The translations under genes were made by a program, and so were the position numbers. The notes under the pieces are model-generated. The model worked only from the letters and a program-made list of their open reading frames with translations. It was not told the origin of the DNA and did not search any database. This document shows positions 6,475 to 59,666 of a stretch of 64,000 bases of DNA, piece by piece. Origin of the DNA: a virus. Each line of letters starts with the position of its first letter. Positions within the stretch are counted from its first letter, which is position 1. The stretch spans positions 1 through 64,000 of IMG/VR virus record IMGVR_UViG_3300037467_001931, one strand, 5' to 3'.

Positions 6475-6476
6475 TT

Positions 6477-6701: not shown

Positions 6702-6709
6702 AATTTAAC

Positions 6710-7066: not shown

Positions 7067-7077
7067 TTTATATCCTC

Positions 7078-8407: not shown

Positions 8408-8408
8408 A

Positions 8409-8528: not shown

Positions 8529-8557
8529 TAATTATCTCCTTCAAATTTAAGGGTAAG

Positions 8558-8565
8558 TATAAATT
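8558..8565 (+). promoter_or_regulatory. candidate T4-type late promoter TATAAATT
   Basis: 7/8 match to T4 late consensus TATAAATA, 38 nt upstream of the structural-like ORF at 8603. The same octamer lies upstream of ORF 46677. Confidence 0.35.
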
Positions 8566-8602
8566 AATAAATAGATAAAGTAAACTAATATTTTATAAGA
8601 TT

Positions 8603-9133: not shown

Positions 9134-9167
9134 AAAATTATACTTCTTCTAAAAATTAATGTATAAT
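9132..9167 (+). promoter_or_regulatory. class-B promoter: A-tract + ATTATAC-N17-GTATAAT
   Basis: ATTATAC 9137-9143, GTATAAT 9161-9167. Upstream of uvsY. Confidence 0.6.
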
Positions 9168-9210
9168 TGAAAGTGATTACCATTTTCATAAATATATTAT
9201 AGGATCGTAA

Positions 9211-9648: not shown

Positions 9649-9671
9649 ACTTTAAATAACACAAAAAATAA

Positions 9672-16590: not shown

Positions 16591-18127
16591 TTGTGTAAAT
16601 TGTGGTTCAAAGAATTTGAAATATGGTGGTATTTTAATGCGTGGTAGAGAAAAGATGACGAAACTATGTTGTCTTGATTGTGGAACAAATAGTTACGTTG
16701 GTGTTGATGTTTATGAAGAATTAGTTGGTGAAAGTGTTGAAAAAATAATAAAGCAACAGGAATTACCAAGCAATTGTGAACGATTAGTTATCACTAGCGC
16801 AATCATAGGAAGTCCTGTAGATGATGTATTTTTAGAAACCCTTGAAACTTATTGTGCTTCCAGAAATGCAAGATTAGTTGTCATTCCAATTAAATACAAA
16901 AATAGAGATTGGGATGAAGATGTGGAAGGACCTCATCCAGCAAGTGAATATTTTACTTATGATAATTTTTACTTCGGAAACGAATTCAAAGTCATGGGTG
17001 GATTGAGACTTAATGCTTCTATGGAACATCCTCTTTCAGGACTAGAATCTCTATCTAAAGGATATTCTGTTATTTTTGGTCATCCACAAGTAGCTTTAAA
17101 AACTGTTCCTTCTGAAGGTAGTTACCCTTCAATAATAACAACTACTGGTTGCATAACAAATAAAATTATTTATACAGATACCAAACAAGGATTGAAAGCA
17201 ACATTTAATCATAGCAACTCTGCAGTTGTCCTGGAAATTGATGAAGATTCAAACACTCACATGAGACATTTGAATTTTGATGGTATTGGGTTCTTCGATT
17301 TAAGTATTTATTATTCTCGTGACACAATTACATATAAAGAAGATCCTGTTATTGCCTTAGTTACTGGTGATGAACATGTTATTTTTCGCGACGAATTTGT
17401 TTCTGCCGCAACATATACAGATAAAGATTCTATCGTAAATGTTCTAAAACCAAAATTAATTGTTCGTCATGACGTGATGGATTCATACAGTGTTTCTCAT
17501 CATCATAAACATAATGTATTTACTCAATATGCAAAGTATAAAGAAGGATATTCATCCTTGGCAGATGAATTGGATGAAACTATAGATTATATTGTAGCAA
17601 CCACACCACCTTGGGCAAAATCTTTAATTGTATCAAGTAATCATAACGATCATATCCTTAGATGGTTAAATGAATGTGATCCAAAAGAAGAACCATGGAA
17701 TGCTGAATTGTATCATTGGTTTATGTATGAAATGCTTAAAAAAACAAGGATGGGAGAATCAGGTGCAGAATACCCGAATCCTTTTGAATTATATGTAAAA
17801 GAATTTTATGATTCATCTAATATGGAATTTTTGAAAAGAACTGAATCATATATGATAGATGAAGTTTCTGTGAATTATCATGGAGACATTTCCACGAATG
17901 GAACAAGAGGTAATAGGAGTTCATTTAGTAAATTACCAACCAAAACAATAATTGGCCATTCTCACAGCCCAGGAATCGATAAGGGAGCATACCAAGTAGG
18001 AACAAGTTCTAAACGAAGACTTGAGTATAATTCTGGACCAAGCTCTTGGGATCATTGTCATTGCCTCATTTATAAGAACTCTAAGAGGCAATTAATTTTT
18101 ATCCGAAACCGAAAATGGAGAGCGTAA
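16583..18127 (+). CDS. zinc-ribbon + calcineurin-like metallophosphoesterase protein
   Basis: N-terminal CVNCGS...CLDCG. C-terminal motifs LVTGDEHV, SSNHNDH, YHGD, IGHSHSPG. Confidence 0.6.
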   Translation: MFDCVNCGSKNLKYGGILMRGREKMTKLCCLDCGTNSYVGVDVYEELVGESVEKIIKQQELPSNCERLVITSAIIGSPVDDVFLETLETYCASRNARLVVIPIKYKNRDWDEDVEGPHPASEYFTYDNFYFGNEFKVMGGLRLNASMEHPLSGLESLSKGYSVIFGHPQVALKTVPSEGSYPSIITTTGCITNKIIYTDTKQGLKATFNHSNSAVVLEIDEDSNTHMRHLNFDGIGFFDLSIYYSRDTITYKEDPVIALVTGDEHVIFRDEFVSAATYTDKDSIVNVLKPKLIVRHDVMDSYSVSHHHKHNVFTQYAKYKEGYSSLADELDETIDYIVATTPPWAKSLIVSSNHNDHILRWLNECDPKEEPWNAELYHWFMYEMLKKTRMGESGAEYPNPFELYVKEFYDSSNMEFLKRTESYMIDEVSVNYHGDISTNGTRGNRSSFSKLPTKTIIGHSHSPGIDKGAYQVGTSSKRRLEYNSGPSSWDHCHCLIYKNSKRQLIFIRNRKWRA

Positions 18128-19177
18128 ATGGGAAACCGAGTTTTATTTATTTTAAAGCGAAGAGAGGATTATGCTCTCGACGTTAGTTACAGCAAAAATG
18201 GTTTATCAACAGGACTATTAAATTCAGCAACATTCGTTAATGATATGCTGAATAAAGATGGGATAGAATCAAAAATAGTTGTTGTCATAGATAATAATGA
18301 TATTGATCGTGAAGTTACAAAATATAAACCAACCCACGTTATTATTGAGGCATTATGGGTTGTTCCTGAGAAGTTTGATATTTTAACTAAGCTTCACCCA
18401 AATGTAAAGTGGATTGTTCGTTTCCATTCTGAAATTCCTTTTCTTTCTAACGAAGGAATTGCAATGGAATGGCTGTTCCAATATATCACCAAGAAGAATG
18501 TATATATTGGAGTAAACAGCACAAGATTTCTAAAAGAATCAAAAAATCTCTTAAATAAAATTGTTGATCAGAATTATATTGATGAGCATGTAATTTTCCT
18601 TCCAAACTATTATCCAACTGGTGAAATCAACTTCCCTTTACCTGATATGTTCACCAGAACGTTTGAAATTGGTTGCTTTGGAGCTATTAGGCCGTTGAAG
18701 AACCATTTAATGCAAGCGGTTGCAGCAATTAAGTTTGCTGATATGCATAGAAGGAAACTTAATTTCCACATCAACGTTGGACGAGTGGAAATGAAAGGTA
18801 AAAACATTTTAAATAATCTTCATTCACTTTTTGCTAATATACAAGATTCTGGTCATCAGTTGGTAGTTCATGATTGGTTAGAACATGATGATTTCCTTGA
18901 ATTGATCTCCTGTATGGACATCTGTATGCAGATTAGCTTCTCAGAAACCTTTAATATTGTTGCTGCGGATTCTATTTCAGTAGGGGTCCCAACTGTTATG
19001 TCTAAAGAAATTCCATGGGCAAGATTTGGAGTTGCAGACCCTACAGATCTCGATGATATCGTCCAAACAATGAATAGAACATGGAAGTATAGGTTCGCGA
19101 ATTCTATCATAAATCAATTGAGCCTCAATTCATACGTCAAAAATTCTGAGAAGGTTTGGCTCAGATATTTTCGATAA
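18128..19177 (+). CDS. GT-B (GT4-like) glycosyltransferase
   Basis: C-terminal sugar-donor motif ISFSETFNIVAADSISVGVPTV (E-x7-E-like). Its start abuts the stop of the preceding ORF. Confidence 0.5.
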   Translation: MGNRVLFILKRREDYALDVSYSKNGLSTGLLNSATFVNDMLNKDGIESKIVVVIDNNDIDREVTKYKPTHVIIEALWVVPEKFDILTKLHPNVKWIVRFHSEIPFLSNEGIAMEWLFQYITKKNVYIGVNSTRFLKESKNLLNKIVDQNYIDEHVIFLPNYYPTGEINFPLPDMFTRTFEIGCFGAIRPLKNHLMQAVAAIKFADMHRRKLNFHINVGRVEMKGKNILNNLHSLFANIQDSGHQLVVHDWLEHDDFLELISCMDICMQISFSETFNIVAADSISVGVPTVMSKEIPWARFGVADPTDLDDIVQTMNRTWKYRFANSIINQLSLNSYVKNSEKVWLRYFR

Positions 19178-30632: not shown

Positions 30633-31169
30633 ATGAAACCTGTAGAATATAGACATGCAGTGAATCCAGACTTCTGTCAAGAGATCATTAATAATTTTGA
30701 TAAATGTGAAATAACATATAGAAAGAAAAAAGAATATTCTTTCAAAGAAATTTCCATGATCGAAAATGAACATATGAGTAAATTAATGGAAGGATTAGTT
30801 CGAAAAGCAGATTATTTTACAACTCTTTTCAAATCCCAAAATAATTTAAAAGTTTTTCCTGATAGATATGGTTATGAAGCAGTTAGAGTTAAGAGGTATG
30901 ATGCAGCAGATCAAGATGAGTTTCCTTGGCACGCCGATGTTATGGATTGGCAATCTGCAAAAAGATTTTTAGTTTGTATGTTTTATCTTAATGATAATTT
31001 TATTGGTGGTGAAACTGATTTTGGTTCAGAAGAAAAAATAAATTATATTATCACACCAGAACAAGGTAAAATTGTTTTATTCACCCCATTCTGGGATAAT
31101 CCCCACCGTGGAAGAAAGGTAATATCAGGTTCAAAATATATTGCAAATGTTTATTTACATCTATTGTAA
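30633..31169 (+). CDS. 2OG-Fe(II) oxygenase (prolyl 4-hydroxylase-like)
   Basis: HxD in FPWHADVMD, distal His in NPHRGRKV, and a Lys/Arg-x-Ser region GSKYIANVY. Confidence 0.68.
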   Translation: MKPVEYRHAVNPDFCQEIINNFDKCEITYRKKKEYSFKEISMIENEHMSKLMEGLVRKADYFTTLFKSQNNLKVFPDRYGYEAVRVKRYDAADQDEFPWHADVMDWQSAKRFLVCMFYLNDNFIGGETDFGSEEKINYIITPEQGKIVLFTPFWDNPHRGRKVISGSKYIANVYLHLL

Positions 31170-34277: not shown

Positions 34278-34748
34278 ATGGAATTCGTAGAAAAGGTAAA
34301 GTTGTTCAACGGTATCGCAGGGACTAAAGAAGAATTTAATGTAAAGATGATTTCTCTTTACACAGGATTAGTTCTTGAAGAAGTTGCAGAAATGCTAGAA
34401 GCTCTTCATATAGATGATCCTGAGGTCGAAGATCTAATTGAATCATTAAATGAATCTTCTCATAGTTTTAAAATAAATGATTTTGAAGCAACAATTGGTT
34501 GTTGTGTAGATAGAAAAGAATTCCTGGATGGTGCTGTTGACGTGGCAGTAGTTGCTTTGGGTGCAGGAGTTTCAATTGGTGCAGATGTTTTGGGTGCCTG
34601 CCATGAAGTTGCTGATTCTAATTTATCCAAATTCCCAATTGTAAATGGTGAACATGTTGTTCTTAAGGATGAAAATGGTAAGATTATGAAACCAGAATCA
34701 TTTCGCAGACCTGAGCTTGGGAAATTCTTGCATCAAATAGAACAATAA
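34278..34748 (+). CDS. mazG: MazG-like nucleoside triphosphate pyrophosphohydrolase
   Basis: All-alpha ORF with metal-binding helix LVLEEVAEMLEAL and LDGAVDVAVVALG...EVADSNLSKF, as in phage MazG proteins. Confidence 0.65.
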   Translation: MEFVEKVKLFNGIAGTKEEFNVKMISLYTGLVLEEVAEMLEALHIDDPEVEDLIESLNESSHSFKINDFEATIGCCVDRKEFLDGAVDVAVVALGAGVSIGADVLGACHEVADSNLSKFPIVNGEHVVLKDENGKIMKPESFRRPELGKFLHQIEQ

Positions 34749-34778
34749 ATATACATATCATTTTAATACAGGTATAAT
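34744..34778 (+). promoter_or_regulatory. class-B-variant promoter; ATG follows the -10 by 6 nt
   Basis: AATAA-ATATAC (34749-54)-N17-GTATAAT (34772-78), then TATTTC, then ATG 34785. Confidence 0.5.
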
Positions 34779-34784
34779 TATTTC

Positions 34785-36113
34785 ATGGTTAAAAAAATTG
34801 TTGCAACAGAAAAATTAAATTGTGAACACCTTCTAGGGATGTTCCTTGACGAAAGTCACTATGATTTACTTGTAGAATCGGATATGGATTTCTACACGCC
34901 ACAGAATATAAATGGTGAAAGTGAAATTCTATTTTCCTTCAGGAAGAATTATTTTACTGAAGAAGAACAAAAGGGTGCTTATGATGGTCTTTTTGCCGCT
35001 GCAACAATTTCTGAAAATCGTGGAATGGCTGCAGGGACTAAGGAAGGATACACAAATACAAATGTGGCTGGTGAACGTCAATTCGTTACCAATTACGAAA
35101 GAGAAATGATGGATGCCATAATGGCTGATGTCAATGCAAAATTAGTTGAAGAAGAAGATTGCATCACCAAAGTTCGTAACAAGTATCCCACTGTTGAATC
35201 TAGAAGGAGATGTGAAGGTAGTTCCATGAATCTCACTTGGGTAATCAATAGAATCAGGAATGGTAAAAAATTATTTGTTTTTGATGATTGGGTTGATTCT
35301 ATAATTCCCCTATCGAAAAAGGAACGTGCAGAAGCGGTTGAGGATGTCAGCACGATGATGTCGCAATCTCATTATGGTAATAAAGTTTTCTCTGGTGTGG
35401 CTGGATTTTATGATCGTTATCCAAGAATTCCATATGGAAGAGCAACTTCCTACACCGAACATAATCCAGAAAAATGGAAGTTGGCATTTCCCTATCTTCA
35501 AAAACTGAGTGCTGCGTATAAGGAACTCATTCCTCTGAAATGGGCAAATCAAAATGAAGCAATTCAAAAACTCGATCCTGAATTTGTTGTGCCTGGAACA
35601 GTATTCACAACAATTACAGTTAATAAAACTTTCAGGACTGCTGCTCATAGGGATGCAGGTGATCTTTCCACAGGGTTCTCCAATCTTTGCGTAATTACTA
35701 ACGGGAAGAAATTTTCCGGTGGGTATTTGATATTCCCTGAGTTCAACGTAGCTATTAATATTCGTCCTGGTGATTTGCTTTTGGTTAACAATCATGAGGG
35801 AATTCATGGAAACACACCAATAGTTCTTGAAGAAGAAGGTGCAGAAAGAATTTCTTTAGTTTGCTATTTCCGTGAAGGAATGTTGGAACTTGGTGAAAAG
35901 AAGTATGAAGACATTCGTAGACAATTTATAAGAGATAGAAAAAATAATGAGAATCATCCATTCTGGAAATTTGGGTGGAATGGTGTTTCTGCTGGTTGGG
36001 AAAGCAGTCAAGAATGGTATGATTATCTTTCCTCAAAAGAAAATGGTGAAAGATATTTAAAAATGTATCATCCAGAAGCAGAAAAGGTTTCTCTAGAGGA
36101 TTTATTTGCGTGA
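34785..36113 (+). CDS. 2OG-Fe(II) dioxygenase, TET/JBP-like (candidate nucleic-acid base hydroxylase)
   Basis: Catalytic core FRTAAHRDAGD (HxD in the AHRD context seen in TET), ...GDLLLVNNHEGIHGNTP (distal His), ...ERISLVCYF (2OG-binding Arg). Confidence 0.55.
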   Translation: MVKKIVATEKLNCEHLLGMFLDESHYDLLVESDMDFYTPQNINGESEILFSFRKNYFTEEEQKGAYDGLFAAATISENRGMAAGTKEGYTNTNVAGERQFVTNYEREMMDAIMADVNAKLVEEEDCITKVRNKYPTVESRRRCEGSSMNLTWVINRIRNGKKLFVFDDWVDSIIPLSKKERAEAVEDVSTMMSQSHYGNKVFSGVAGFYDRYPRIPYGRATSYTEHNPEKWKLAFPYLQKLSAAYKELIPLKWANQNEAIQKLDPEFVVPGTVFTTITVNKTFRTAAHRDAGDLSTGFSNLCVITNGKKFSGGYLIFPEFNVAINIRPGDLLLVNNHEGIHGNTPIVLEEEGAERISLVCYFREGMLELGEKKYEDIRRQFIRDRKNNENHPFWKFGWNGVSAGWESSQEWYDYLSSKENGERYLKMYHPEAEKVSLEDLFA

Positions 36114-37261
36114 GAATTTTAAATATTCATTCCTACCCATTCGGATTGGTTAATAAGGAAGGATCACCGAATGGTGGTGGTGAAAAAGTTCATTTGGATA
36201 TTCATCATTTATTGGAAGAAAATGGTATTGACATTTATTCTTTTTGTTCGGAATCTGATCCTCTTCATGGTGATCGCTGGGTAAAAGTATTACCCAGCGG
36301 TGGGTTGGATCCTTGGAAAAAGAATAAAACACAAATCTATGCTGATATCACAAAGGCAATTAATAAACTCAAACCCGATATTATCATAAATAATGGTTCT
36401 GACAAGTTACTTCGATTAACGAATCATTTGAGGATTCCATCATTATTTGTTGATCATAGAAGCAATGATATCCATAAACTTTACCATGCCGATTTCTTTA
36501 CCAATTCAGCATTTAAAAATCGTGAACTTGGTGGCAAATCTGTGACAGTTTCTTTATATTCTCAACTTACAAAAAATAATGTAATTAAGAAATATTGGGG
36601 AGATAAAGGTTACGAACTTGATGGGTATCTTCAATTTCAATATGTTACTCCTGAACTGGAAAGTTATGAGGTGGCAAAATATAAAACAAAAAACTGTATA
36701 ACAATTGGTAGGCCAGAAACAAATAAGAATCCTCATAGAATTAAGAAATTTGCAGAAAAATATAAACTCGATTATAGGATTATTACGCAACTGCCGGATA
36801 AACCCAAACCAGATACTGAAAAATATTTCAACGAAAAAATAGTGGCGAATCCTGGAGTTTTAAAAAGAACTCATGTAAATATTGGCAGGAAATTCACTAT
36901 GACCATGTTGAAGAATTCCATGTTATATTATTCCACGAGTGAAATAGAATCAGCAGGTATTACAGCATTTGAAAGTCTTTGTCTTGGCGTTCCTCTTGTT
37001 TTATATTCTCCATTGAGATATCATGCTTCACAGATGTTCGCTCCAGATGGAGAAAAGTACTGTTGGGATTATGATAACAAGACAGCGAATCTCGAAGAAT
37101 ATGTTGAACATTGTAAATCTCTTAATTTTGATCAAAGAAGAGAAATCGCAAATTATACCAGAAGTCATAGCAGTAAGAGAATTATTGCCATGAAGATTAT
37201 CCAGCAATTAGATTCGATATATAACAATAAGAAACCAGTAGGATTAGAAGATTATGTGTGA
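36110..37261 (+). CDS. GT-B (GT4-like) glycosyltransferase
   Basis: STSEIESAGITAFESLCLGVPLVL is an E-x7-E donor-binding motif. The GTG start overlaps the dioxygenase stop (GTGA). Confidence 0.6.
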   Translation: MRILNIHSYPFGLVNKEGSPNGGGEKVHLDIHHLLEENGIDIYSFCSESDPLHGDRWVKVLPSGGLDPWKKNKTQIYADITKAINKLKPDIIINNGSDKLLRLTNHLRIPSLFVDHRSNDIHKLYHADFFTNSAFKNRELGGKSVTVSLYSQLTKNNVIKKYWGDKGYELDGYLQFQYVTPELESYEVAKYKTKNCITIGRPETNKNPHRIKKFAEKYKLDYRIITQLPDKPKPDTEKYFNEKIVANPGVLKRTHVNIGRKFTMTMLKNSMLYYSTSEIESAGITAFESLCLGVPLVLYSPLRYHASQMFAPDGEKYCWDYDNKTANLEEYVEHCKSLNFDQRREIANYTRSHSSKRIIAMKIIQQLDSIYNNKKPVGLEDYV

Positions 37262-37379
37262 TGGCCCTCATTCTGGATTTAAAGCTTTAATGTCAGAAAA
37301 AGTTAAGAAGCTTTTAAAAAGTACCGAGGGATTAGAAAAATTAAAAAAGATAATTCGTGATGTATCCAAAAGGAAATGA
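37254..37379 (+). CDS. small coupled ORF (41 aa)
   Basis: It overlaps the glycosyltransferase stop, and its own stop overlaps the next ATG (ATGA at 37376). Confidence 0.35.
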   Translation: MCDGPHSGFKALMSEKVKKLLKSTEGLEKLKKIIRDVSKRK

Positions 37380-38473
37380 AATTGTATAAGCATCTAGAGA
37401 ATAAAGATAAACCATATATAGATTGGCGATTACCAAAAAATCGCATGAAGGGATTTTTGATGTGGCTTGATTGGCGATTGACCTATGGTGATCTTGATCA
37501 TTATGTCTGTAATAATGCTTATCGAGATACAAAATTTTCCCCAACTGGAAAATCAATGACCATAGAACAAGCCATTTGGTTTTCATTGATTTTTGGAATG
37601 ACTTATCAATCAGAAATGGCTTGGGTTATCTATTGGCATTTTCCTAATTTATTGAGTATTAACCTCAAGGAATTAGAAGAATGGAATCTGGAAAACATGG
37701 ATAAGCAAAAGTATGCCAGGGATACCAAATATAATAAGGGAAGAATTGTTGAGCAGGTAAAATCCATTCAGGAAAATGTAGGAAGACATGGCTCTTGTGT
37801 CGGTTGGGTAAATTCATTTCTTGAAGAAAAGGAATCCGATTCTTTTTACTCTGCATATAATTCTGTTATGGAGTTCTATAAATTTGGCAGGATGACTTCA
37901 TGGATTGCCTGTCAAGTTTTATTTGAAACTGCTGATGTCCCTATAAGACCAGATACTCTATTGGCTCATGATCAATCCAGTTGGTCTGTTCGTTCTGGAC
38001 TAATGTTTTTATATAATCGTGATGACAGAGTGGAATCAACTGGAGCAGTTTTCGATAAGAACGATATTCCTTGGATACTGAGTACTGAAAAAGAATTATA
38101 TAAAATTTGTGAAGATTATATAAAGCCAGAAAACCGGAAAATATTTTCAAATTATCTTTTAGAATCACATCTTTGCCAATATAAAAAATTGATGCTGGGT
38201 GGTGATTTTCCAGGACATTCTTCTGGTGATCATGTTTCACGGGCAAATTGGTTATCTTCCAGATGGAAAAATGTTGATTTCTCTGCATTCTATAAAGAAG
38301 CAATTCAGCATCATCACCCATTAGTTAGAGGAAAAGAAGAAAATAAAGAATTGCGCAATATTTGTTGTGATACTGGTCAAATTATAAACATGCATCAAGA
38401 TTATGATTTTATGCCAAATCTATATCTTGAAATGCAAGCAGAAAGTAATAATCTCTCGAATATTTTTGGTTAA
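37376..38473 (+). CDS. uncharacterised Trp-rich helical protein; tentative aGPT-pyrophosphorylase-like DNA-base transferase
   Basis: 365-aa ORF translationally coupled to the dioxygenase-glycosyltransferase genes. The functional guess rests only on gene context and composition. Confidence 0.4.
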   Translation: MKLYKHLENKDKPYIDWRLPKNRMKGFLMWLDWRLTYGDLDHYVCNNAYRDTKFSPTGKSMTIEQAIWFSLIFGMTYQSEMAWVIYWHFPNLLSINLKELEEWNLENMDKQKYARDTKYNKGRIVEQVKSIQENVGRHGSCVGWVNSFLEEKESDSFYSAYNSVMEFYKFGRMTSWIACQVLFETADVPIRPDTLLAHDQSSWSVRSGLMFLYNRDDRVESTGAVFDKNDIPWILSTEKELYKICEDYIKPENRKIFSNYLLESHLCQYKKLMLGGDFPGHSSGDHVSRANWLSSRWKNVDFSAFYKEAIQHHHPLVRGKEENKELRNICCDTGQIINMHQDYDFMPNLYLEMQAESNNLSNIFG

Positions 38474-38508
38474 ATAAATTATACAAAGAGAAATATTTTA
38501 TGTATAAT
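38472..38508 (+). promoter_or_regulatory. class-B promoter driving tRNA-Gln
   Basis: AAATAA-ATTATAC (38478-84)-N17-GTATAAT (38502-08). The tRNA 5' end is at 38520. Confidence 0.6.
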
Positions 38509-38519
38509 TTTCTTTTAGT

Positions 38520-38593
38520 TGGGGAATGGTCTAATGGTATGACTCCGGAATTTGACTCCGGCAATGTAGGTTCGATTCCTGCTTCCTCTGCCA
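38520..38593 (+). tRNA. tRNA-Gln (anticodon UUG)
   Basis: Manual cloverleaf: acceptor TGGGGAA/TTCCTCT (position 1:72 is U:U), D arm GTCT..TGAC. Anticodon stem CCGGA/TCCGG with loop ATTTGAC. T arm GTAGG-TTCGATT-CCTGC, discriminator G, encoded CCA. Confidence 0.85.
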
Positions 38594-38689: not shown

Positions 38690-39925
38690 ATGAAAGACGA
38701 AATACGTGTTTGTGTTGTTGGTGTTGGTAATTGCGCTAAATCCCTAATTGAAGGAGTTGCATTATATAATAGAACTGGAAGAACAGATGGTCTTGCTTTT
38801 TCAGAAATTGGTGGATATACACCAAGCCATATAAAATTCGTAATGGCATTAGACGTTGATGGTCGCAAAGTTGGTCATAGACTAAGAAGTGCAATTTATT
38901 CAAAACCAAATTGTGCAATGGATATGCAAGTTACTGATTTCGATTTAGAATTAGTTTGTGGTGATACCCGAGTTCTTCATGGTAAGCAGCTTGATGGAAT
39001 TGCTCCTCATATGGAACTTTTACCAGAGGATGAAGCATTTCTCCCAGTTAAAGGAGTTGAAATTACCAAGGAAGAATTCATCAATGAGTTACGTAAAAAT
39101 AAAGTAGACATCGTTGTTAATTATCTTCCTGTTGGTTCACAAGAAGCTACAGAGTTTTATCTAGATGCCTGCATAGAAGCTAAAATTCCATTTGTTAATT
39201 GCATTCCTGTATTTATTGTCTCTGATCCTGTTTGGGGGCAGAAACTAATTGATGCACAAATCCCTGCAATTGGAGATGACATGAGAAGCCAATTAGGAGC
39301 TTCTGTATTATCTCAAGCTCTTCAAGAATTATTCTTCAATCGCGGTATGAATATCAAATTCCATGAACAAACAAATCATGGTGGAAATACTGACTTTGCC
39401 AATATGATGGATCAAAGTCGTCTGGCATCCAAGAAAATTTCCAAGGAAAATGTTATTCGTTCACAAAACGATATTCGAGGAATTCCTGTTCCAAAGAATG
39501 GAATTTATGCAGGACCATCATCCTACATTCCTTATCACGGTGACAACAAGGTTGCTCATTTTAGGATTGAAGCTGAGGGGTTTGGTGGAGCACCAGTTAC
39601 TTTTGATGCACGTCTTTCTGTTCAAGATTCACCAAATTCAGCTGGTGTTGTTATAGATGCAATTCGTTATCTTCAAGTTGCCGTGGAAATGGGAATGATT
39701 GGCCCTCTTTTTGGGCCGAGCGCTGCTACTCAAAAGACTCCCCCAAAACAAATGATGATTCAAGATGCACATGAAGAGTGTGTTGCTTTATCTCAACGTA
39801 GATGGACTAAAATTACAAAAGAAAAGAATAATATTTTTAACTATATTGATTTTGAAGTTAGAAACGAACCATATCAACCTATAGATGTAAAAACTCTTGC
39901 AGATATTATCGAAAGGTCTAAGTGA
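38690..39925 (+). CDS. ino1: myo-inositol-1-phosphate synthase (Ino1 family)
   Basis: IRVCVVGVGNCAKSLIEGV, KFVMALDVDGRKVG, VDIVVNYLPVGSQEATEFY, PFVNCIPVFIVSDPVWGQK, PAIGDDMRSQLGAS, GGNTDFANM...RLASKKISK and DSPNSAGVVIDAIR are colinear with mycobacterial Ino1 as I recall it. Confidence 0.9.
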   Translation: MKDEIRVCVVGVGNCAKSLIEGVALYNRTGRTDGLAFSEIGGYTPSHIKFVMALDVDGRKVGHRLRSAIYSKPNCAMDMQVTDFDLELVCGDTRVLHGKQLDGIAPHMELLPEDEAFLPVKGVEITKEEFINELRKNKVDIVVNYLPVGSQEATEFYLDACIEAKIPFVNCIPVFIVSDPVWGQKLIDAQIPAIGDDMRSQLGASVLSQALQELFFNRGMNIKFHEQTNHGGNTDFANMMDQSRLASKKISKENVIRSQNDIRGIPVPKNGIYAGPSSYIPYHGDNKVAHFRIEAEGFGGAPVTFDARLSVQDSPNSAGVVIDAIRYLQVAVEMGMIGPLFGPSAATQKTPPKQMMIQDAHEECVALSQRRWTKITKEKNNIFNYIDFEVRNEPYQPIDVKTLADIIERSK

Positions 39926-40436: not shown

Positions 40437-40759
40437 TGGATAGAGAAATTAAAGTATATGCCAGATTCGATATGTTAAATAACACTATCGATATGTTTGT
40501 TCGTTCTAAGGAAGATGGGATTTTAAGAATAGCTCCATCTTTACTTCCTGAAACATTTTCACCGGCAGAACCTGGTAAAACGCAATCTCCTACATTAACC
40601 ATAGCTCCTGAATGCGGACAGGAATTAATGGATCAATTGTGGTCTTGTGGATTGAGACCAAAAGCAGGTAGTGGATCAGCTGGTTCATTGGCTGCAACAG
40701 AAAATCATTTGAAAGATTTACGAAAAATTACATTTAATTTACTTAAGATTGAAAACTAA
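40436..40759 (+). CDS. hypothetical protein
   Basis: ATG 40436 overlaps the upstream TGA (TGATG). The ORF track lists TTG 40430. Confidence 0.55.
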   Translation: MDREIKVYARFDMLNNTIDMFVRSKEDGILRIAPSLLPETFSPAEPGKTQSPTLTIAPECGQELMDQLWSCGLRPKAGSGSAGSLAATENHLKDLRKITFNLLKIEN

Positions 40760-41139
40760 TGAAGATAAATACATATGATATAGATGGCGTGATTTTTATG
40801 GGGAAGGAATTGACTGGAGTTTATCCTGGCCCATTTGACATTATCATTACTGGTCGCTCCTATGAAGAACGCCCAGAGACAGAAAAGATGTTAGCTGAAC
40901 GTGGAATTGATAATGTTGTATATTTCAATTTAACAAAATTCGATGATAAAACAAGGGAGGATTCGGGATATCATAAAGGTATAACTATTGCTCATCTAAA
41001 GACTGTTGGTTACGAAATTGGTATACATTTTGAAGATGATCCAATTCAGGCAGGAGTAATAAAAATTATACATCCAGAATTAAATATTGTATTATTACAA
41101 CATAACTTAATGACCATGGAGAATGTAAGGCATCTATGA
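40759..41139 (+). CDS. HAD-superfamily phosphatase (small, capless)
   Basis: Motif I YDIDGVI, motif II ITGRS, motif IV HFEDDP. The layout resembles the T4 Pnkp phosphatase domain (DVDGTL, VSGRES, IDDR). Confidence 0.6.
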   Translation: MKINTYDIDGVIFMGKELTGVYPGPFDIIITGRSYEERPETEKMLAERGIDNVVYFNLTKFDDKTREDSGYHKGITIAHLKTVGYEIGIHFEDDPIQAGVIKIIHPELNIVLLQHNLMTMENVRHL

Positions 41140-41455: not shown

Positions 41456-41652
41456 TGAGCACAGAAAGAAAGATAGTTAGAAGGGGAGATATTTTCAAAT
41501 CCAGTAGATTTGGTTGGGTTAAATTCGTTGGGTTTGATTATTATCATGGTCAAAAGACTGCTGAATTATATAGTTCCGAATATAGGGATAGATATTATCC
41601 ATGGCCAGCTGATATTGAAAAAGAAAATAATGTGGAGCTTGTTGATCTATGA
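41452..41652 (+). CDS. hypothetical protein
   Basis: 66-aa ORF in the coupled chain. Confidence 0.5.
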   Translation: MMSTERKIVRRGDIFKSSRFGWVKFVGFDYYHGQKTAELYSSEYRDRYYPWPADIEKENNVELVDL

Positions 41653-42203
41653 GAAAAATTGTTGCAATATCAGGAAGACCAGGAACAGGTAAATCGACTT
41701 TAATTAATATTTTCTTGAATAAATGGTGTTGGGAAAACGTTAGCCCTCTTCCTCTAGTTAATGGGTTATACTGCAAAGAATTAGATTTATATGTGTTAGG
41801 AAAGTATGAAGCTGGGGAAGTATTTCCTGGAACAGATAAACTTTCCATGGCTGTTCAACCAGCTGTTGAACAATTCATTAAATCAAATTCTTCAAATGTT
41901 TTATTTGAAGGTGATCGCTTAACGAATATGAAGTTCTATGACTTTCTTTTATCCCTCCCAGATACAGAAGTTGAACTCGTTGTTATTAAAGCAAAGGAAG
42001 ACATTCTCACAGAAAGATATTCCGAAAGGGGATCAGATCAGTCAGAAACTTTCCTGAAAGGAAGAGAAACAAAAATAAAGAATATTGAAAATAATATGGA
42101 TTATTGGGACAACATTACTACTCTCTGGAATAATAACAAAGATGATCAACAAAAGATACTGAGCCATCTTGATCTTTGGTTGTGTGATAAGGTGAATGTA
42201 TAA
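41649..42203 (+). CDS. P-loop kinase of polynucleotide-kinase type
   Basis: Walker A ISGRPGTGKST, Walker B-like VLFEGDR. Lid motif LTERYSERGS resembles T4 Pnkp LVKRNSKRGT. Confidence 0.55.
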   Translation: MRKIVAISGRPGTGKSTLINIFLNKWCWENVSPLPLVNGLYCKELDLYVLGKYEAGEVFPGTDKLSMAVQPAVEQFIKSNSSNVLFEGDRLTNMKFYDFLLSLPDTEVELVVIKAKEDILTERYSERGSDQSETFLKGRETKIKNIENNMDYWDNITTLWNNNKDDQQKILSHLDLWLCDKVNV

Positions 42204-42778
42204 TGATTAGTGATAATAATCCAGATAGTGTTCCTGATTGGGTAAAAAATTCAAAATATCCATCAACACCACCAACTCCGGAAGAATGGGGTAGGGCATT
42301 TCCTAATTTAATATTTGTTGATAAAGAAAAATTAGCAAGGGATCAAAAGTGGCACGATCGTTGGTTTAAAAGAGCAGAAGAAGTTTCAACTTGGTCAAAA
42401 GACCCCTCCACAAAGGTTGGTGCTGTTTTTGTAAACGAAGAAAAACATAGAGAATTATCTGCAGGATATAATGGATTCCCCCGAGGTATCAAGGATGATG
42501 ATCGATTAAATAATCGTGAGATAAAGTATAAGCTTGTTGTCCATGCTGAAATGAATGGAATTTTTAATGCTGTGAATAATGGTGTAACTCTTGACGGATG
42601 TTCCTTATATGTTTGGGGATTACCAATTTGTTCAGAATGTGCCAAAGGAATTATTCAAGTTGGTGTTAAGAAAATTTATGTAAAGAAACAATTTGTTGAT
42701 AATGAAAGGTGGAAAGAATCATGGAAACTGACTCAACAGATATTTAGTGAAGCAGAAATAAAAGTTATTGTAATATAA
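42203..42778 (+). CDS. cd: dCMP deaminase
   Basis: Zinc motifs VVHAEMN and PICSECAK, with an approximately 60-aa N-terminal extension. Confidence 0.9.
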   Translation: MISDNNPDSVPDWVKNSKYPSTPPTPEEWGRAFPNLIFVDKEKLARDQKWHDRWFKRAEEVSTWSKDPSTKVGAVFVNEEKHRELSAGYNGFPRGIKDDDRLNNREIKYKLVVHAEMNGIFNAVNNGVTLDGCSLYVWGLPICSECAKGIIQVGVKKIYVKKQFVDNERWKESWKLTQQIFSEAEIKVIVI

Positions 42779-43271: not shown

Positions 43272-43322
43272 AAATCCATTTAAAGCTAAATAATATATAT
43301 TAACTTAGCTGATGGATTTCTA
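43269..43322 (+). promoter_or_regulatory. long two-tier hairpin spanning an upstream stop and a downstream start
   Basis: TAGAAATCCAT (43269-79) pairs with ATGGATTTCTA (43312-22). The inner stem is AGCTAA (43284-89)/TTAGCT (43305-10). Confidence 0.5.
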
Positions 43323-45238
43323 TGAAAGGTTTTTCTGGTTCCACACAACAACACCCAAAAATTGTATTTTCAGTTCTTGAAGGAGAAATACCTTCTTTAA
43401 CAGAAGAATTAATTGTAAGAACTGGAAATAAACTTTCTGTGGAAAATGAAGTAGATCACATCGTTCTTCTTCCACACTCTCCAATAAACGAGTCTGAAGT
43501 AATAAAGAATTACCTTAGCCAGTTCTCTACAGGATTGGTTTATTACTCTTCGAAAGAAGAAGTAAAATCAGCAATTTCAAGTTATAATCCTCTGCATGTT
43601 GTTTGTGAAGAAATCAATTCACGAACTTTCAAGAATTCATTCCCAGTAAAGAGTTACAATTTTCCCATCAAAGAATCTATTATTGATGGTAAATTAGATC
43701 AATTTTCAAAGTGTTCATTTAATGGACTCAGGGAGATTGATTGTAAATTTTTATTTAATTTAATGAGGGAACATTTTAATCTAGAACCATTAATAGAAAA
43801 AATAGATTTACCAAAGAATGATTTAAGAGAACAATACTTCAAGGGTGATATATTTAAAATTGGTCAAACTGTGGAAACCAAAGGAGAATTGTATGAAATT
43901 ATTAATCGCGGTAGTAATTATTTGGTCCTAGTTGATTCTGTTGGTGATATACATAAATCTTGGATTAATGATACAAATACCACTACAGAAACTATTGTTT
44001 GGAATCCATTAATTTCTGAAGGAGAAGTGTTCTTCAAGGGATATTCTTCAAAGAACTTTCATATTGCAAATAAAGAATTAAAAGAAAAAATAGAAAGGGT
44101 AATTGAAGAAAACGTTGATCCCTTCATTATTCTTAATTTGGTTAAAATGATTGATGATTTCATTATTTCTAATGATGAAACAACTTTAAATAAAATAAAC
44201 GAAAACCTCTCTAAGCTAGAGAAGCAGAAACCCATTTCCGAAGATGTTATGTCATCTGACTTTAAATTATCTTCAGATGGAAGAAGAATTAGAGCACATA
44301 GAATAACCTTCAAGAACAAGGTAAACGGTAAAAAAGATCAGTCTGAAGAAGATGATCAAGAACAAGTAAAAGAAGAACTTGATACTAAATTAGAATACCA
44401 TGATGAACTTAATCCTAAACTCTGGAAGGATGATAAATTAATTCCAATTGTTAGGAACAAGTTATTAAAGATTGCTGATAAATTCGAGGACTTCCTGGAT
44501 AAGGATGGAAAAATACTTGATATCGTAGATGTTATAATTACCGGATCAAATTGTAATTACAATTATACTCCTCAATCAGATATTGATTTACATTTAATTG
44601 TTGATCTTTCTGACATTGAAGATAAAGAATTAATGGCTGCGTTCTTAACAGCAAAGAAAACTTTATGGAAAGATCAGCACGATATTACCATAAAAGGATA
44701 TGATGTTGAATTATATGCTCAAGATAAAGATGATAAACTTGTTGCAACAGGAATGTATTCTATTCGTAAAGATAAATGGATAGAAAAACCTCAACATCTT
44801 GAATTAAAAGTTGACAATTTCTCTGTTCAAGCAAAGGCTTGTGACATTATTAATCAAATAGATCAAATACTTGATAATGGTGGAACAGTTGAAAGAATAG
44901 ATGCTGTTAAAGCTAAGATAAAGAAATTGAGATCAGCAGGTCTTTCAACAGGTGGAGAATTTTCTGTAGAGAATCTTGCGTTCAAAGCCATTAGGAATAA
45001 TGGATATTTTGAAAAACTAAATAATTTAAAGAAAGCAATTACAGATAAAGAATTGTCTTTAGAAAGCACAGTGGTCGTTGATAAAAATAGAACCGATAAC
45101 GCTTCTAAAGATATAATGTCTTATGACGATTTTAAAACTCTAGTAAAGAAATTAAAAACTTCAGTAAATTATCCAGGCCATTCATTGGGTGATAGAGAAG
45201 ACTTAAGAAAACTAAAAATAAAGTACGGATACGAATAA
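43322..45238 (+). CDS. large protein with Pol-beta-type nucleotidyltransferase domain
   Basis: VIITGSNCNYNYTPQSDIDLHLIVD is a GS-x(n)-DxD NTase motif. The rest of the 638 aa is unassigned. Confidence 0.5.
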   Translation: MKGFSGSTQQHPKIVFSVLEGEIPSLTEELIVRTGNKLSVENEVDHIVLLPHSPINESEVIKNYLSQFSTGLVYYSSKEEVKSAISSYNPLHVVCEEINSRTFKNSFPVKSYNFPIKESIIDGKLDQFSKCSFNGLREIDCKFLFNLMREHFNLEPLIEKIDLPKNDLREQYFKGDIFKIGQTVETKGELYEIINRGSNYLVLVDSVGDIHKSWINDTNTTTETIVWNPLISEGEVFFKGYSSKNFHIANKELKEKIERVIEENVDPFIILNLVKMIDDFIISNDETTLNKINENLSKLEKQKPISEDVMSSDFKLSSDGRRIRAHRITFKNKVNGKKDQSEEDDQEQVKEELDTKLEYHDELNPKLWKDDKLIPIVRNKLLKIADKFEDFLDKDGKILDIVDVIITGSNCNYNYTPQSDIDLHLIVDLSDIEDKELMAAFLTAKKTLWKDQHDITIKGYDVELYAQDKDDKLVATGMYSIRKDKWIEKPQHLELKVDNFSVQAKACDIINQIDQILDNGGTVERIDAVKAKIKKLRSAGLSTGGEFSVENLAFKAIRNNGYFEKLNNLKKAITDKELSLESTVVVDKNRTDNASKDIMSYDDFKTLVKKLKTSVNYPGHSLGDREDLRKLKIKYGYE

Positions 45239-46642
45239 ATGAAAAATTTTAAAGAATTTTTAGAAGAATCAAAGGCAAATAATGTTCTTTCTGATAAATT
45301 GAAGAATATGAATTCACTTAAGAAATTCAGTTACCCTACTCCTGAGGAAAGACGAGCACAATTAGCAAAAGAAAAAGAAAAGAAAGATGTTAAGGAATCA
45401 GAAGATCTTGATGAGTCAGATGGCGTTAAATCAGGTGGTGTAGGTGGATATGCTAAGGCAACTACTTCAAAAGGAATTAAAAGAGACACAACAGATTCTT
45501 CGAAATTTGATAAAAGAACCGATGAATTAGTTCTTTCTGGTGACCACGAAAGCTTATTAAAGCATCTATCGACTCATGTCAATGGGAAAAGTAGAAAAAG
45601 AGATGCTTATATTGCTAAATTAAAGAATTCTATCACCAGTAAGATGAAAAAAGAATCATTGGAATATCTCGATGAAAGAACAAATCAAGAGCACGAATTC
45701 ATAATGCAATCACTTGCTGATAAAGATATCAATTCCCATATTAAAGATGGCAAAGTGGTTGTTCATAAAGATAATGTAGCAAAAGCTAAATCACAATTGA
45801 AGAAGATGGGTCATGAAATGCAAGTTGTCCATGAAGGATTCGAAGAATTAGAAGAAGCAATGGTTGGGCATACAACAAAAAGTTTATCAAAGTATGTAAA
45901 ATCACTTGGGTGGACTCTTGTCAGAACTGATGGTGGCCACGATGTTTACAAGCACCCAAAATCAGTTAAAAATCTCCCAATCCCAAGACATGCCGGAGAA
46001 CTATCTAGGCCCACAGTAGCGAAGATGTTAAAAAGAGCAGAATTTAGAGAAGGGGAAGAAATGTTATCGTTTAAGGAATTTATTACAGAAGATCAAGAAT
46101 GTCAAATTGATGAATCATATAAGAAAAAATATGAAACGGCTCCAGATCGTGTCAAGAGAGTTGCTGACGAAATGGCCAGATTAAGAAAGATGAGCAAATC
46201 TGATCTAATTAGGACATTTCCATCAAGGTTAAATACAAACCATTTAAAGAGTGAGCCAAAGGATATTATTATAGGTGGGCATTTGGAGACAAAATTTTCT
46301 CACAAAGATCTGCGAGCTCACGATAAACATTTCTTTGGTGAATCAACCGAAGTCGTTGAAGATCAAGAGGATTTAATGGAAGATCTTCATGATAGACTTT
46401 CAACTCATATTCGTAATATGCGTAATGATGGTCATCACGTTGTAATTACCGACAGAGGCAGTGATGGTCGTTCTGCAAAATTTGTTTCTACCAAGGGTGG
46501 TATAAAGAGATTACATACTATAACAATGAATAGTATTAAACAAGAAAGAATTGGTGGGAAAGATAAAGAAGAAGAATCTCAGGAAACAGAAAAGAGAGGT
46601 AGAGGTCGTCCAGCCGGAAGTAAGTCTGGAGCAAGAGCTTAA
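45239..46642 (+). CDS. Lys/Glu-rich protein with embedded HicA-like domain and C-terminal AT-hook
   Basis: YVKSLGWTLVRTDGGHDVYKHPKSVKNLPIPRHAGELSRPTVAKMLKRA matches the HicA pattern (G-[GS]-H ... PRH ... ILKQ). The C-terminus KRGRGRPAGSK is an AT-hook. Confidence 0.55.
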   Translation: MKNFKEFLEESKANNVLSDKLKNMNSLKKFSYPTPEERRAQLAKEKEKKDVKESEDLDESDGVKSGGVGGYAKATTSKGIKRDTTDSSKFDKRTDELVLSGDHESLLKHLSTHVNGKSRKRDAYIAKLKNSITSKMKKESLEYLDERTNQEHEFIMQSLADKDINSHIKDGKVVVHKDNVAKAKSQLKKMGHEMQVVHEGFEELEEAMVGHTTKSLSKYVKSLGWTLVRTDGGHDVYKHPKSVKNLPIPRHAGELSRPTVAKMLKRAEFREGEEMLSFKEFITEDQECQIDESYKKKYETAPDRVKRVADEMARLRKMSKSDLIRTFPSRLNTNHLKSEPKDIIIGGHLETKFSHKDLRAHDKHFFGESTEVVEDQEDLMEDLHDRLSTHIRNMRNDGHHVVITDRGSDGRSAKFVSTKGGIKRLHTITMNSIKQERIGGKDKEEESQETEKRGRGRPAGSKSGARA

Positions 46643-58704: not shown

Positions 58705-59142
58705 ATGAACAAAGCGATAGAAAACCCAAAGGATATTATTTCCGGAGGGAAGTTACCATTGGGATTGGTTCCAGATACAATAATGATAGAAGCTGCAATT
58801 CCCTTCCTAGAAGGTGCGTTGAAGTACGGAAGATATAATTGGAGGTTGTGTGGAGTAAAGGCCAGCATTTATCGTGACGCATTACAACGTCATCTAGATG
58901 ATTGGTGGAATGGAGAAGATGTTGACCCTGTTACAAAAGTTAAGAATTTGGCAAGTGTTATAGCATGTGCGGGAATTATTCTAGATGCTGAACTTTGTGG
59001 AATGTTAACAGATGATCGACCTCCAAGAGCACCAATCAGTGAATTAATAGAACAGTACGAAGAACAGGTAAAATTTCTTAAGGAAATGTTCAAAGATAAG
59101 AATCCTTACCATTACACAATTGAAGATAGTGAGGTAAAATAA
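58705..59142 (+). CDS. DUF5664/MazZ-like all-alpha dNTP pyrophosphohydrolase family protein
   Basis: GKLPLGLVPDTIMIEAAIPFLEGALKYGRYNWR...YRDALQRHLDDWWNGEDVD...NLASVIACAGIIL matches the family pattern GK.....P..AL...A.VL..GA.KYG..NW...RHL.....GE..D..SG..HLAH. Confidence 0.55.
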   Translation: MNKAIENPKDIISGGKLPLGLVPDTIMIEAAIPFLEGALKYGRYNWRLCGVKASIYRDALQRHLDDWWNGEDVDPVTKVKNLASVIACAGIILDAELCGMLTDDRPPRAPISELIEQYEEQVKFLKEMFKDKNPYHYTIEDSEVK

Positions 59143-59144
59143 TA

Positions 59145-59666
59145 ATGGATACCGTTTTTGTAGATATGGATGGTGTGTTGGCAGACTTTTCTACTGAATA
59201 TTTATCTTGGCTTAATGGAAGAAAGGAACGCACCAGAGATTTATTCATCGAAGCTACGGAAGAATATAGAATATTTTCAAAGTTGAAACCAATGCCAAAT
59301 AGTCATATTCTCATTAATAAATTATTAAAGTTGGAAGAATATGGTTATAATATAGAAATATTATCCAGTTTAAATCGTGATGATATTGATCAAGCAAAGA
59401 ATTCAGCAAAAGATAAAGATAATTGGTTACTTGAAAGAAATATTCATTGGAAAAGAAATTTCGTTAAATCTGGTAAAGAAAAGTCAAAATACGCAACAAC
59501 AAAATCTATTTTAATCGATGATGATATGTTTAATGTTTGTGATTTCAGAAATTTTGGAGGAAGAGCAATACTCCATTACGACGCTTTGCCGCAAGTGACA
59601 ATAGATTTATTGGATTTAAATATAGAAGAAATACTAAAGGAATCAGATGAAGATAACAGGCACTAG
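59145..59666 (+). CDS. 5'(3')-deoxyribonucleotidase (HAD, NT5C-like)
   Basis: Motif I VFVDMDGVLADF, distal LIDDD. Confidence 0.65.
   Translation: MDTVFVDMDGVLADFSTEYLSWLNGRKERTRDLFIEATEEYRIFSKLKPMPNSHILINKLLKLEEYGYNIEILSSLNRDDIDQAKNSAKDKDNWLLERNIHWKRNFVKSGKEKSKYATTKSILIDDDMFNVCDFRNFGGRAILHYDALPQVTIDLLDLNIEEILKESDEDNRH

Follow-up and report, generated by a model that had tools for sequence, protein, structure and literature searches.

A putative post-replicative thymidine hypermodification cassette in a T4-like phage, with a linked inositol-3-phosphate synthase and phosphatase pair

DNA hypermodifications determine the resistance of phages to restriction and CRISPR systems and affect the sequencing of phage DNA. 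Among the closest described systems are those in which an amino-acid:DNA transferase (ADDT or AADT, formerly aGPT-Pplase clade 2) transfers glycine or serine to 5-phosphomethyl-deoxyuridine (5-PmdU). A Glu/Cys pair of these clade 2 transferases is essential, as its mutation abolishes activity, and hydroxyl nucleophiles are also accepted by ADDTs, e.g., the serine oxygen in phage ViI (PMC8989533). In some of the contigs that carry the kinase and the AADT, a TET_JBP protein can replace dUMP hydroxymethylase (PMC8989533). More recently, two clades of the phage 5-methylpyrimidine dioxygenases (5mYOXs), C1 and C2, have been established as thymine dioxygenases, C1 being linked to P-loop kinases and AADTs, and a C5-cytosine methyltransferase (C5-MT) has been found on just 6% of phage 5mYOX contigs (PMC13229309). 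Post-replicative oxidation of thymine by phage TET/JBP enzymes was demonstrated only between 2021 and 2026, and the end products of most of these clusters are undescribed. YTY or NTR are the sequence contexts that the published enzymes prefer. Here we analyse a stretch of 64,000 nucleotides from a virus (IMG/VR record IMGVR_UViG_3300037467_001931, positions 1 to 64,000; hereafter, the window), which represents under half of a ~154-kb genome (154,404-bp contig). It encodes a TET/JBP-family dioxygenase, a glycosyltransferase (GT) and an ADDT, followed downstream by an inositol-3-phosphate synthase (MIPS), a HAD-fold phosphatase-like protein and a P-loop kinase. Taken together, these genes of a T4-like phage are probably a cassette for the hypermodification of thymidine after replication.

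The 442-aa protein is, judged from its sequence and predicted fold, a TET/JBP-family dioxygenase dependent on Fe(II) and 2-oxoglutarate (2OG), as a preliminary description of this DNA had proposed from the letters alone. It matches the Pfam family Tet_JBP (PF12851) at 7.2e-26, with 90.8 bits against a gathering threshold of 34.9 and over profile positions 10-164 of 164; its match to Pfam TauD has an E-value of 0.039. When the family profile is searched against the Protein Data Bank (PDB), human TET2 ranks first, with the AHRD and RISLV motifs aligned. The best 26 Foldseek matches of the AlphaFold model are NgTET1, CcTet, TET2 and CMD1 (E 1e-7 to 3e-5), and these are followed by FTO/AlkB and, lower, by small-molecule oxygenases. 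Since Pfam, profile and fold searches all rank the TET family first, the protein falls with TET/JBP and outside the P4H, PhyH and TauD hydroxylases. The iron triad of the HxD...H type (H288, D290 and H341) and the 2OG-binding R355 are invariant across 32 homologues, and the peptides first quoted for these motifs (FRTAAHRDAGD, HEGIHGNTP and ERISLVCYF) are all found in the sequence, as is that quoted for the neighbouring glycosyltransferase (SEIESAGITAFESLCLGVPLV). The search returned 2603 homologues, of which more than 120 are full-length; the best 120 are all near-full-length (~432-471 aa), many of them on contigs of 100-175 kb. The ParB-dependent 5mYOX subclass (O'Toole 2026) is marked by a C-terminal extension behind its last conserved Cys; in the window protein, 82 residues, predicted to be helical, follow C360 in the VCYF motif. 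At the other end of the protein, no domain could be assigned to the ~200 N-terminal residues. Many homologues carry near residues 40-60 a Cys4 insertion (C..C..C..C) resembling the Cys-rich part of TET2, which is missing from the window protein and its closest relatives. SNF2 domains are absent, and the GenBank label "SNF2 DNA repair protein" attached to the Cr30 and DLP_6 homologues was discarded as annotation carried over from JBP2.

The preliminary description could place no motif in the 365-aa protein and guessed from its context alone that it might be aGPT-Pplase-like. The guess was right, and a recognisable domain is in fact there: sequence comparison confirms the protein as a member of the ADDT family, with a Pfam match to PF18724 at 5.5e-18 (66 bits, where the cut-off is 26.2) and tblastn matches to ViI-like phages, annotated as aGPT-Pplase2. 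The catalytic pair, E263 and C267, is invariant in the alignment with the transferases of Pseudomonas phage M6 and Salmonella phage ViI (ESHLCQYK in the window, ETVLCKWK in M6 gp51 and ETSGACWLK in ViI gp247), at an identity of ~19% between the window ADDT clade and the characterised transferases. The kinase matches Pfam PF18751 (Ploopntkinase3) at 2.4e-9, with 37.4 bits against a cut-off of 27, and we infer from its linkage to the ADDT that it is an analogue of the kinases acting on 5-hydroxymethyluracil (5hmU) in DNA.

The assignment of the 383-aa protein as a GT-B-fold, GT4-like glycosyltransferase is supported by its sequence profile and by a motif, in agreement with the initial GT-B assignment. 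Its Pfam matches are sub-threshold, both to Glycos_transf_1 (4.7e-5, 23.4 bits, residues 193-351) and to Glyco_transf_4 (1.5e-4, 22.2 bits, residues 22-125). A profile of six sequences reached GT4 structures in the PDB at 8e-8 and 8e-7, and also BshA, and the EX7E motif typical of retaining GT4 enzymes (E280-SAGITAF-E288) is invariant among six homologues. The NCBIfam and PDB matches are generic GT4 enzymes, with no MshA equivalogs among them, and no match to the JGT/TAGT family PF20691 was obtained at E-values up to 0.1. The protein is rare, with four homologues in all among 5.8 billion proteins; an orthologue of 42% identity occupies the equivalent position in the metagenomic contig L057. 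Between this gene and that of the ADDT lies a 41-aa open reading frame (ORF) whose status as a real gene is uncertain. Its codon usage is gene-like, with a score per codon of 0.28 where the other frames give -0.81 and -0.66; no homologue except itself was found among 1.84 billion representative proteins, and L057 lacks it altogether and has a direct overlap of the GT gene with that of the ADDT. The possibility that it forms, together with the 365-aa ORF, a frameshifted longer ADDT was rejected, as the N-terminus of the L057 ADDT aligns from residue 3 of the 365-aa ORF and has no similarity to the 41-aa ORF.

The linkage of these genes was surveyed by comparing the proteins of the window with 89 loci in which this dioxygenase is encoded (numbered with L), 42 of which have at least 6 kb of downstream sequence. 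Among these 42, an ADDT is present in 19 and is accompanied in every case (19/19) by the kinase, often adjacent; a large GT1 enzyme is found instead in 13 loci, and neither ADDT, kinase nor GT1 in 7. Therefore, one dioxygenase feeds alternative downstream chemistries, and the window combines both fates, i.e., glycosylation and kinase/transferase substitution. In L057, the genes for TET, GT-B, ADDT, MIPS, the HAD-fold protein and the kinase form a single plus-strand island between minus-strand genes, and this compact island of six genes defines the module. The same six-gene set, with a different GT, is found in Caulobacter phage Cr30 and in L008, L009 and L082, so that MIPS is syntenic with ADDT and kinase in all five loci.

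The MIPS of the cassette is of the bacterial type. Its best PDB match is the Mycobacterium tuberculosis Ino1 structure 1GR0 (1.8e-77, residues 3-356 against 14-353), with 6K96 matched at 1e-43; it also matches Pfam PF01658 (3e-26) and NCBIfam TIGR03450 (2e-85). The latter score, 287 bits, lies under the equivalog cut-off of 638, and because of this the protein may be a MIPS-like enzyme that makes another cyclitol product. In either case it is a candidate supplier of a cyclitol for DNA modification. Its companion has no Pfam or NCBIfam match, and a sequence profile searched against the PDB gave no identification; its fold and motifs point to a capless HAD phosphatase. D7 and D9 (D7-I-D9-G-V), T31, K64/K73, D93 and D94 do not vary among 35 homologues, and the AlphaFold2 model, with a pLDDT confidence score of 92.5, finds as its best Foldseek matches the 3′-phosphatase domain of T4 PNK, Pnkp1 and the lipin/Pah phosphatases (probability 1.0, E 2e-3 to 1e-2).

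The two proteins co-occur in 11/11 loci, and the presence of MIPS is exactly predicted by the clade of the ADDT: it accompanies all six transferases of clades 3 (Cr30, L008 and L009) and 4 (the window, L057 and L082), and none of those in the 27 loci with clade 2 (~338 aa). The tree of the dioxygenase departs from this split. In addition, ADDT clade 4 pairs with the GT-B enzyme and clade 3 with a TAGT-like GT, the latter recognised weakly in Cr30 gp122 and in a 282-aa protein of L008 (both at ~8e-4).

From family membership, conservation of catalytic residues and gene linkage, the following pathway can be proposed, in which the substrates, the order of the steps and the identity of the product are the inferred part. 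The phage would make ordinary dTTP, with the help of dCMP deaminase and ThyX, and would replicate its DNA with thymine. By analogy with the characterised phage T-dioxygenases, the TET/JBP enzyme would then hydroxylate thymine in DNA to 5hmU, and the P-loop kinase would phosphorylate the hydroxymethyl group. The ADDT, by analogy with its characterised relatives, would displace the phosphate from 5-phosphomethyl-dU with a nucleophile: Cys267 would attack C6, with Glu263 as general acid, expelling the phosphate to leave an exocyclic methylene, after which the nucleophile would be added at the C5 methyl. The GT4-type enzyme would add a sugar either to the remaining 5hmU, in a base-J-like manner, or to the appended group. 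Finally, the MIPS/phosphatase pair would probably supply myo-inositol (phosphate), which is the least certain of the steps.

Other readings of the same genes have to be considered. It has a very low probability that the dioxygenase hydroxylates proteins, RNA or small molecules and that the transferases serve another purpose. The AlphaFold model (pLDDT 75) reaches only modest TM-scores of 0.3-0.48 to TET structures, a single-sequence PDB search returns weak matches to clavaminate-synthase-type enzymes alone, and the long N-terminal part without an assigned domain could also be accommodated by such an enzyme. On the other hand, the Tet_JBP match lies far over its cut-off, profile and fold searches place TET ahead of FTO/AlkB and of the small-molecule oxygenases, and the enzyme is encoded in linkage with ADDT, whose family is known from DNA modification alone. 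A more substantial question is whether the base is thymine or 5-methylcytosine (5mC). The thymine-directed route, already considered at least as plausible in the preliminary description, is clearly favoured, because no C5-MT was found and the related phage enzymes have been published as T-dioxygenases (PMC13229309). The Pfam and PHROG scans, which covered window ORFs of at least 100 aa other than the readily identified core genes of T4 (DNA polymerase, UvsX and gp41 helicase), together with a six-frame motif scan, detected no C5-MT in the window, in accordance with the earlier statement; the conclusion for the window rests on the Pfam scans, the DNA_methylase of L093 (VCPCAGLS) being a weak probe. 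With the same atypical, weak probe, the search of flanks of up to 10 kb on each side of the 89 TET loci gave none, and the annotation of Cr30, a complete genome, lists no methyltransferase. The scanned window ORFs also contain no dUMP/dCMP hydroxymethylase of the thymidylate-synthase type. For the cytosine route to operate, a C5-MT of the host, or one whose gene lies beyond the window, would generate 5mC, which would be oxidised to 5-hydroxymethylcytosine and then glycosylated and/or phosphorylated and substituted. Such a route is used by the phage TET clades A/B, the C5-MT/TET contigs of Burke et al. also carry P-loop kinases and aGPT-Pplases (PMC8256090), and characterised T-dioxygenases oxidise 5mC too in vitro. 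Nevertheless, phage 5mC-dioxygenases normally adjoin their C5-MT, ADDT chemistry has been demonstrated on 5hmU derivatives alone, and the phage invests in dTMP synthesis through ThyX and a dCMP deaminase coupled to the kinase, all of which make the cytosine route improbable. Several observations do weigh against the thymidine cassette as proposed here. The dioxygenase is ~140 aa longer than the characterised 5mYOXs, which belong to other subfamilies. The kinase lies outside the proven 5-HMUDK family PF18748 (M6 gp54, ViI gp67 and phiW-14 gp37); M6 gp54 matches that family, and a BLASTP comparison with the window kinase aligns the P-loop alone (E 0.1). Moreover, 3.2 kb of the window and several small unrelated ORFs separate the kinase gene from that of the ADDT. 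In favour of the thymine route, a ParB/Srx-like ORF (414-454 aa, DGNHRLRAA) lies directly upstream of a clade-2 ADDT in at least eight relatives, an arrangement that fits the published clade C1, as judged from gene context. However, no such protein was detected in the window by ParBc Pfam match among the scanned ORFs, by GxxRxxA-type motif or by tblastn with the ParB-like ORF of L022, and some ParB-less clade C1 enzymes have been found inactive on T and 5mC in E. coli (O'Toole 2026). Finally, a C5-MT could lie elsewhere in the ~154-kb genome, of which the window covers 64 kb, and in L093-L095 the trio of MIPS, HAD-fold protein and HMUDK_hel kinase stands beside a DNA_methylase-family gene, a point shared with the cytosine route.

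The function of the MIPS/HAD pair deserves separate consideration within the thymidine hypermodification reading. Inositol is an acceptor for GT4 enzymes such as MshA and PimA, and ADDTs take hydroxyl nucleophiles; a cyclitol-bearing thymidine is therefore chemically plausible. We tentatively suggest, as an idea that is rather unlikely in its full form, that the MIPS-linked ADDT clades 3 and 4 attach a phage-made cyclitol (myo-inositol or its phosphate) and not an amino acid, that the HAD-fold protein trims it on the DNA, and that the GT4 or TAGT-like GT glycosylates it. No publication linking inositol synthesis to DNA modification was found in the literature. It is considerably more credible, although somewhat short of an even chance, that the two sets of genes are neighbours by chance: TET and GT, with ADDT and kinase, would modify DNA, and MIPS and the HAD-fold protein would be a separate auxiliary metabolic inositol module for the infected cell, set in the hyperplastic replication region of a T4-like phage. 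In agreement with this, MIPS is missing from most of the loci with TET, ADDT and kinase; in the window, a promoter-like motif and a tRNA gene split the pair from the ADDT, and small ORFs split it from the kinase. The pair also occurs without TET or ADDT, both in Ralstonia phage RP13 (L097) and in Stenotrophomonas phage Moby (L096, 7201-12615), where it lies inside a 7-deazaguanine cluster in the order FolE, MIPS, HAD, QueC, DpdA-like, QueE. Against a chance neighbourhood, the obligate partner of the ADDT, the kinase, is separated from it by MIPS and the HAD-fold protein in the window and in L008, L009, L057 and L082, and the strict correspondence of MIPS with ADDT clade (6/6 against 0/27) has no counterpart in the TET tree. 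Furthermore, DNA-modification genes stand beside the pair in every known context, including a nucleobase kinase in the marine T4-like loci L093-L095 (~4545-10740). There, a ThyA homologue, a dCMP deaminase, a MIPS-like protein (432 aa) and the HAD-fold protein are followed by an HMUDK_hel kinase (PF18723), a 346-aa protein of unknown function and a member of the DNA_methylase family whose motif IV is atypical (VCPCAGLS). The arrangement looks like another pyrimidine-modification cassette that uses the MIPS/HAD pair. Thus, the pair may serve DNA modification as a general add-on, or it may be metabolic and unrelated, within a hyperplastic region. A further candidate for inositol chemistry, a 638-aa ORF (43322-45238) with a weak "cytidyltransferase" PHROG match, was set aside as a CDP-inositol enzyme, as it has no Pfam or NCBIfam support and is conserved in loci without MIPS.

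The window corresponds to the replication/nucleotide-metabolism arm of a T4-like myovirus. It carries genes of the T4 type for gp23, the capsid scaffold, UvsY, UvsW, gp46/47, gp55, gp45, gp44/62 and RegA, as well as for DNA ligase, DNA polymerase, UvsX, gp41 helicase, RNase H, ribonucleotide reductase, ThyX and PhoH. A nucleotide search against GenBank phages found no near relative, just short patches of 66-84% identity. The four ORFs that the preliminary description had grouped as an operon are all present where it had put them, with the overlaps it had reported (GTGA, 8 nt and ATGA), including that between the dioxygenase stop and the GT start and those on either side of the 41-aa ORF (Table 1). 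It had also given these genes a promoter of their own after mazG. A sigma-70-like sequence does occur in the 36-nt gap, with a -10 element that ends 7 nt before the ATG, and the promoter is therefore best called putative. The same sequence belongs to an intergenic palindrome, ATTATAC-N15-GTATAAT, that gives 21 strand-hits in the window against 1.5 expected, a number reached in 0/100 shuffles. Three of its copies end just 7 nt ahead of the start codons at 12810, 34785 and 49437, a location that points either to leaderless transcription early in infection or to a site bound by a dimeric regulator. As one copy precedes the dioxygenase gene and another follows the 365-aa ORF, the four genes are bracketed as a unit. 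The extent originally given to the operon (34744-38473) holds for these four genes; the cassette itself runs on downstream to MIPS, the HAD phosphatase and the kinase. The tRNA gene located in between is not thought to be part of the modification pathway. Both thyX and the dCMP deaminase gene, which had been named as the source of thymidylate, are encoded in the window. The deaminase is context for thymidylate supply rather than a core part of the cassette, and its junction with the kinase gene recurs in L008.

Table 1. Coordinates of the cassette, of neighbouring features in the window, and of ParB/Srx-like genes in related loci.
Feature	Position	Strand	Length	Basis and remarks
mazG	34278-34748			PHROG nucleotide pyrophosphohydrolase, 2.7e-31; directly upstream of the dioxygenase gene
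Promoter-like sequence TATACA-N17-TATAAT (recurrent form (ATTA)TACA-N17-TATAAT)	34750..34778	+		10/12 of sigma-70 consensus; in the 36 nt that separate mazG from the dioxygenase gene
TET/JBP-family Fe(II)/2OG 5-methylpyrimidine dioxygenase (predicted)	34785..36113	+	442 aa	ATG start; Pfam PF12851
GT-B fold, GT4-like glycosyltransferase (predicted)	36110..37261	+	383 aa	GTG start; overlaps the dioxygenase TGA as GTGA
Lys-rich ORF (putative gene)	37254..37379	+	41 aa	8-nt overlap with the GT stop; ATGA overlap with the start of the 365-aa ORF
ADDT/AADT (formerly aGPT-Pplase clade 2)	37376..38473	+	365 aa	Pfam PF18724
Second promoter-like palindromic motif copy	38480..38508	+		directly after the 365-aa ORF; end of the four-gene unit
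tRNA-Gln (UUG)	38520..38593	+		ARAGORN; between the ADDT and MIPS genes
Bacterial-type inositol-3-phosphate synthase (MIPS/Ino1)	38690..39925	+	411 aa	1GR0, TIGR03450, PF01658
Capless HAD-fold (DxDxV) phosphatase-like protein	40759..41139	+	126 aa	motifs and fold
P-loop nucleotide kinase, Walker A GRPGTGKST	41649..42203	+	184 aa	Pfam PF18751
dCMP deaminase	42203..42778	+		Pfam PF00383, 4.3e-19; start-stop coupled to the kinase gene
thyX	50814-51749			
Copies of the palindrome	9137, 12773, 19184, 22521, 22774, 28083, 34750, 38478, 41065, 49400, 55951			
ParB/Srx-like ORFs in relatives	L022 (4094-5458), L030, L060, L065, L069, L071, L084, L090			

Some other genes were noticed in the course of the analysis. 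In phage C48C1 (L003, 9323-11355), the TET gene is followed by those of a 344-aa protein of unknown function and a UDP-galactopyranose mutase, and Cr30 (L098/L100; gp006-010 and gp178) encodes a heptose-nucleotide pathway with isomerase, kinase, GT and epimerase; these sugar genes may indicate unusual sugars on the DNA. At 16583-19177 of the window, a 349-aa protein with weak GT-B/GT1 matches comes after one of 514 aa (phrog_1745, "DNA transfer protein") and may be, to judge from these matches, a second glycosyltransferase. A second, small 2OG-Fe(II) oxygenase (PF13640, 178 aa, 30633-31169) lies between DNA polymerase and UvsX, a position conserved in L008. A dATP/dGTP diphosphohydrolase N-domain protein precedes an NT5C-type 5′-nucleotidase at 58705-59666, and the Cr30 homologue of the former, the pyrophosphohydrolase gp125, is located inside the TET-ADDT cluster. 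In addition, the window contains NAD-salvage genes (NAMPT and a phosphoribosyl-pyrophosphate-synthetase-like gene) and two FeeM-like N-acyl amino acid synthase genes, at 3931-6474 (-), 9672-10409 (+) and 61647-62156 (+), as well as a 467-aa protein with a HicA-toxin domain in residues 218-268 (7e-10; gene at 45239-46642).

The value of this locus lies in the full anatomy of a cassette, in a cultured relative, Cr30, on which the chemistry could be addressed directly, and in the inositol hypothesis, for whose MIPS/HAD pair the cultured Stenotrophomonas phages are likewise accessible. That MIPS and a PNK-like phosphatase are strictly paired with certain clades of the transferase gives a lead to new DNA base chemistry. 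If the tentative cyclitol proposal were true, an inositol-containing hypermodified thymidine would represent a so far undescribed class of base modification in DNA, and the recurrence of the MIPS/HAD pair next to deazaguanine and ThyA/HMUDK clusters would make cyclitol decoration a general add-on of phage DNA modification. The cassette could also provide new enzymes for the site-specific derivatisation of DNA.

How does this cassette compare with known systems? The trio of MIPS, GT4 and phosphatase recalls the early steps of mycothiol synthesis (Ino1, MshA GT4 and phosphatase), a resemblance only, as the GT is here a generic GT4 without MshA equivalog and a TAGT-like enzyme replaces it in relatives. 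With the phage cytosine systems composed of TET, C5-MT and GT (Burke 2021; "Virus-encoded glycosyltransferases" preprint 2023) it shares the order of TET followed by GT, and the GT-B enzymes of the preprint also resemble GT4 structures of the MshA/BshA type; it differs in that no C5-MT was found and that the likely substrate is T and not 5mC. The label "base-J-like" given in the preliminary description suits only the dioxygenase/GT half. As in the base J pathway of kinetoplastids (JBP1/2 and JGT), a TET/JBP enzyme would hydroxylate T and a GT is encoded alongside; however, the GT is here GT-B/GT4-like and not a GT-A enzyme of the JGT/TAGT type, there is no SNF2 or J-binding domain, and a kinase/ADDT branch is added. 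This branch rather resembles the thymidine hypermodification of Salmonella phage ViI and Pseudomonas phage M6 (5-NeOmdU and 5-NedU), with an ADDT homologous to gp247/gp51 and a P-loop kinase as its partner. While ViI and M6 incorporate 5hmdU before replication via dUMP hydroxymethylase, here the dioxygenase is expected to make it afterwards; further differences are the ~19% transferase identity, the other Pfam family of the kinase, and the fact that no partner of the pyridoxal-phosphate decarboxylase or radical-SAM type was found. A close likeness is seen to the metavirome clusters of TET_JBP, P-loop kinase and AADT (sequences 22-25 in Fig. 2 of Lee et al. NAR 2021/22; contigs 72/80/86 of Burke et al. 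PNAS 2021; clade C1 of O'Toole et al. PNAS 2026). In both cases the three enzyme families are linked, with no dUMP hydroxymethylase and no adjacent C5-MT, a predicted in-situ conversion of T to 5hmU feeds the kinase/transferase chemistry, and ParB-like genes lie by the ADDT in relatives. The window differs from those clusters in that no ParB was found, in the long N-terminus of its 442-aa dioxygenase, in its PF18751 kinase, in the GT4-type GT-B enzyme of the operon, and in the embedded MIPS and HAD pair, which is not mentioned in the publications consulted. Because the core of TET/JBP, kinase and AADT, with or without GT, belongs to an already published class, this cassette is a variant and not a new kind of system, and what it adds to that class is the inositol synthase/phosphatase pair.

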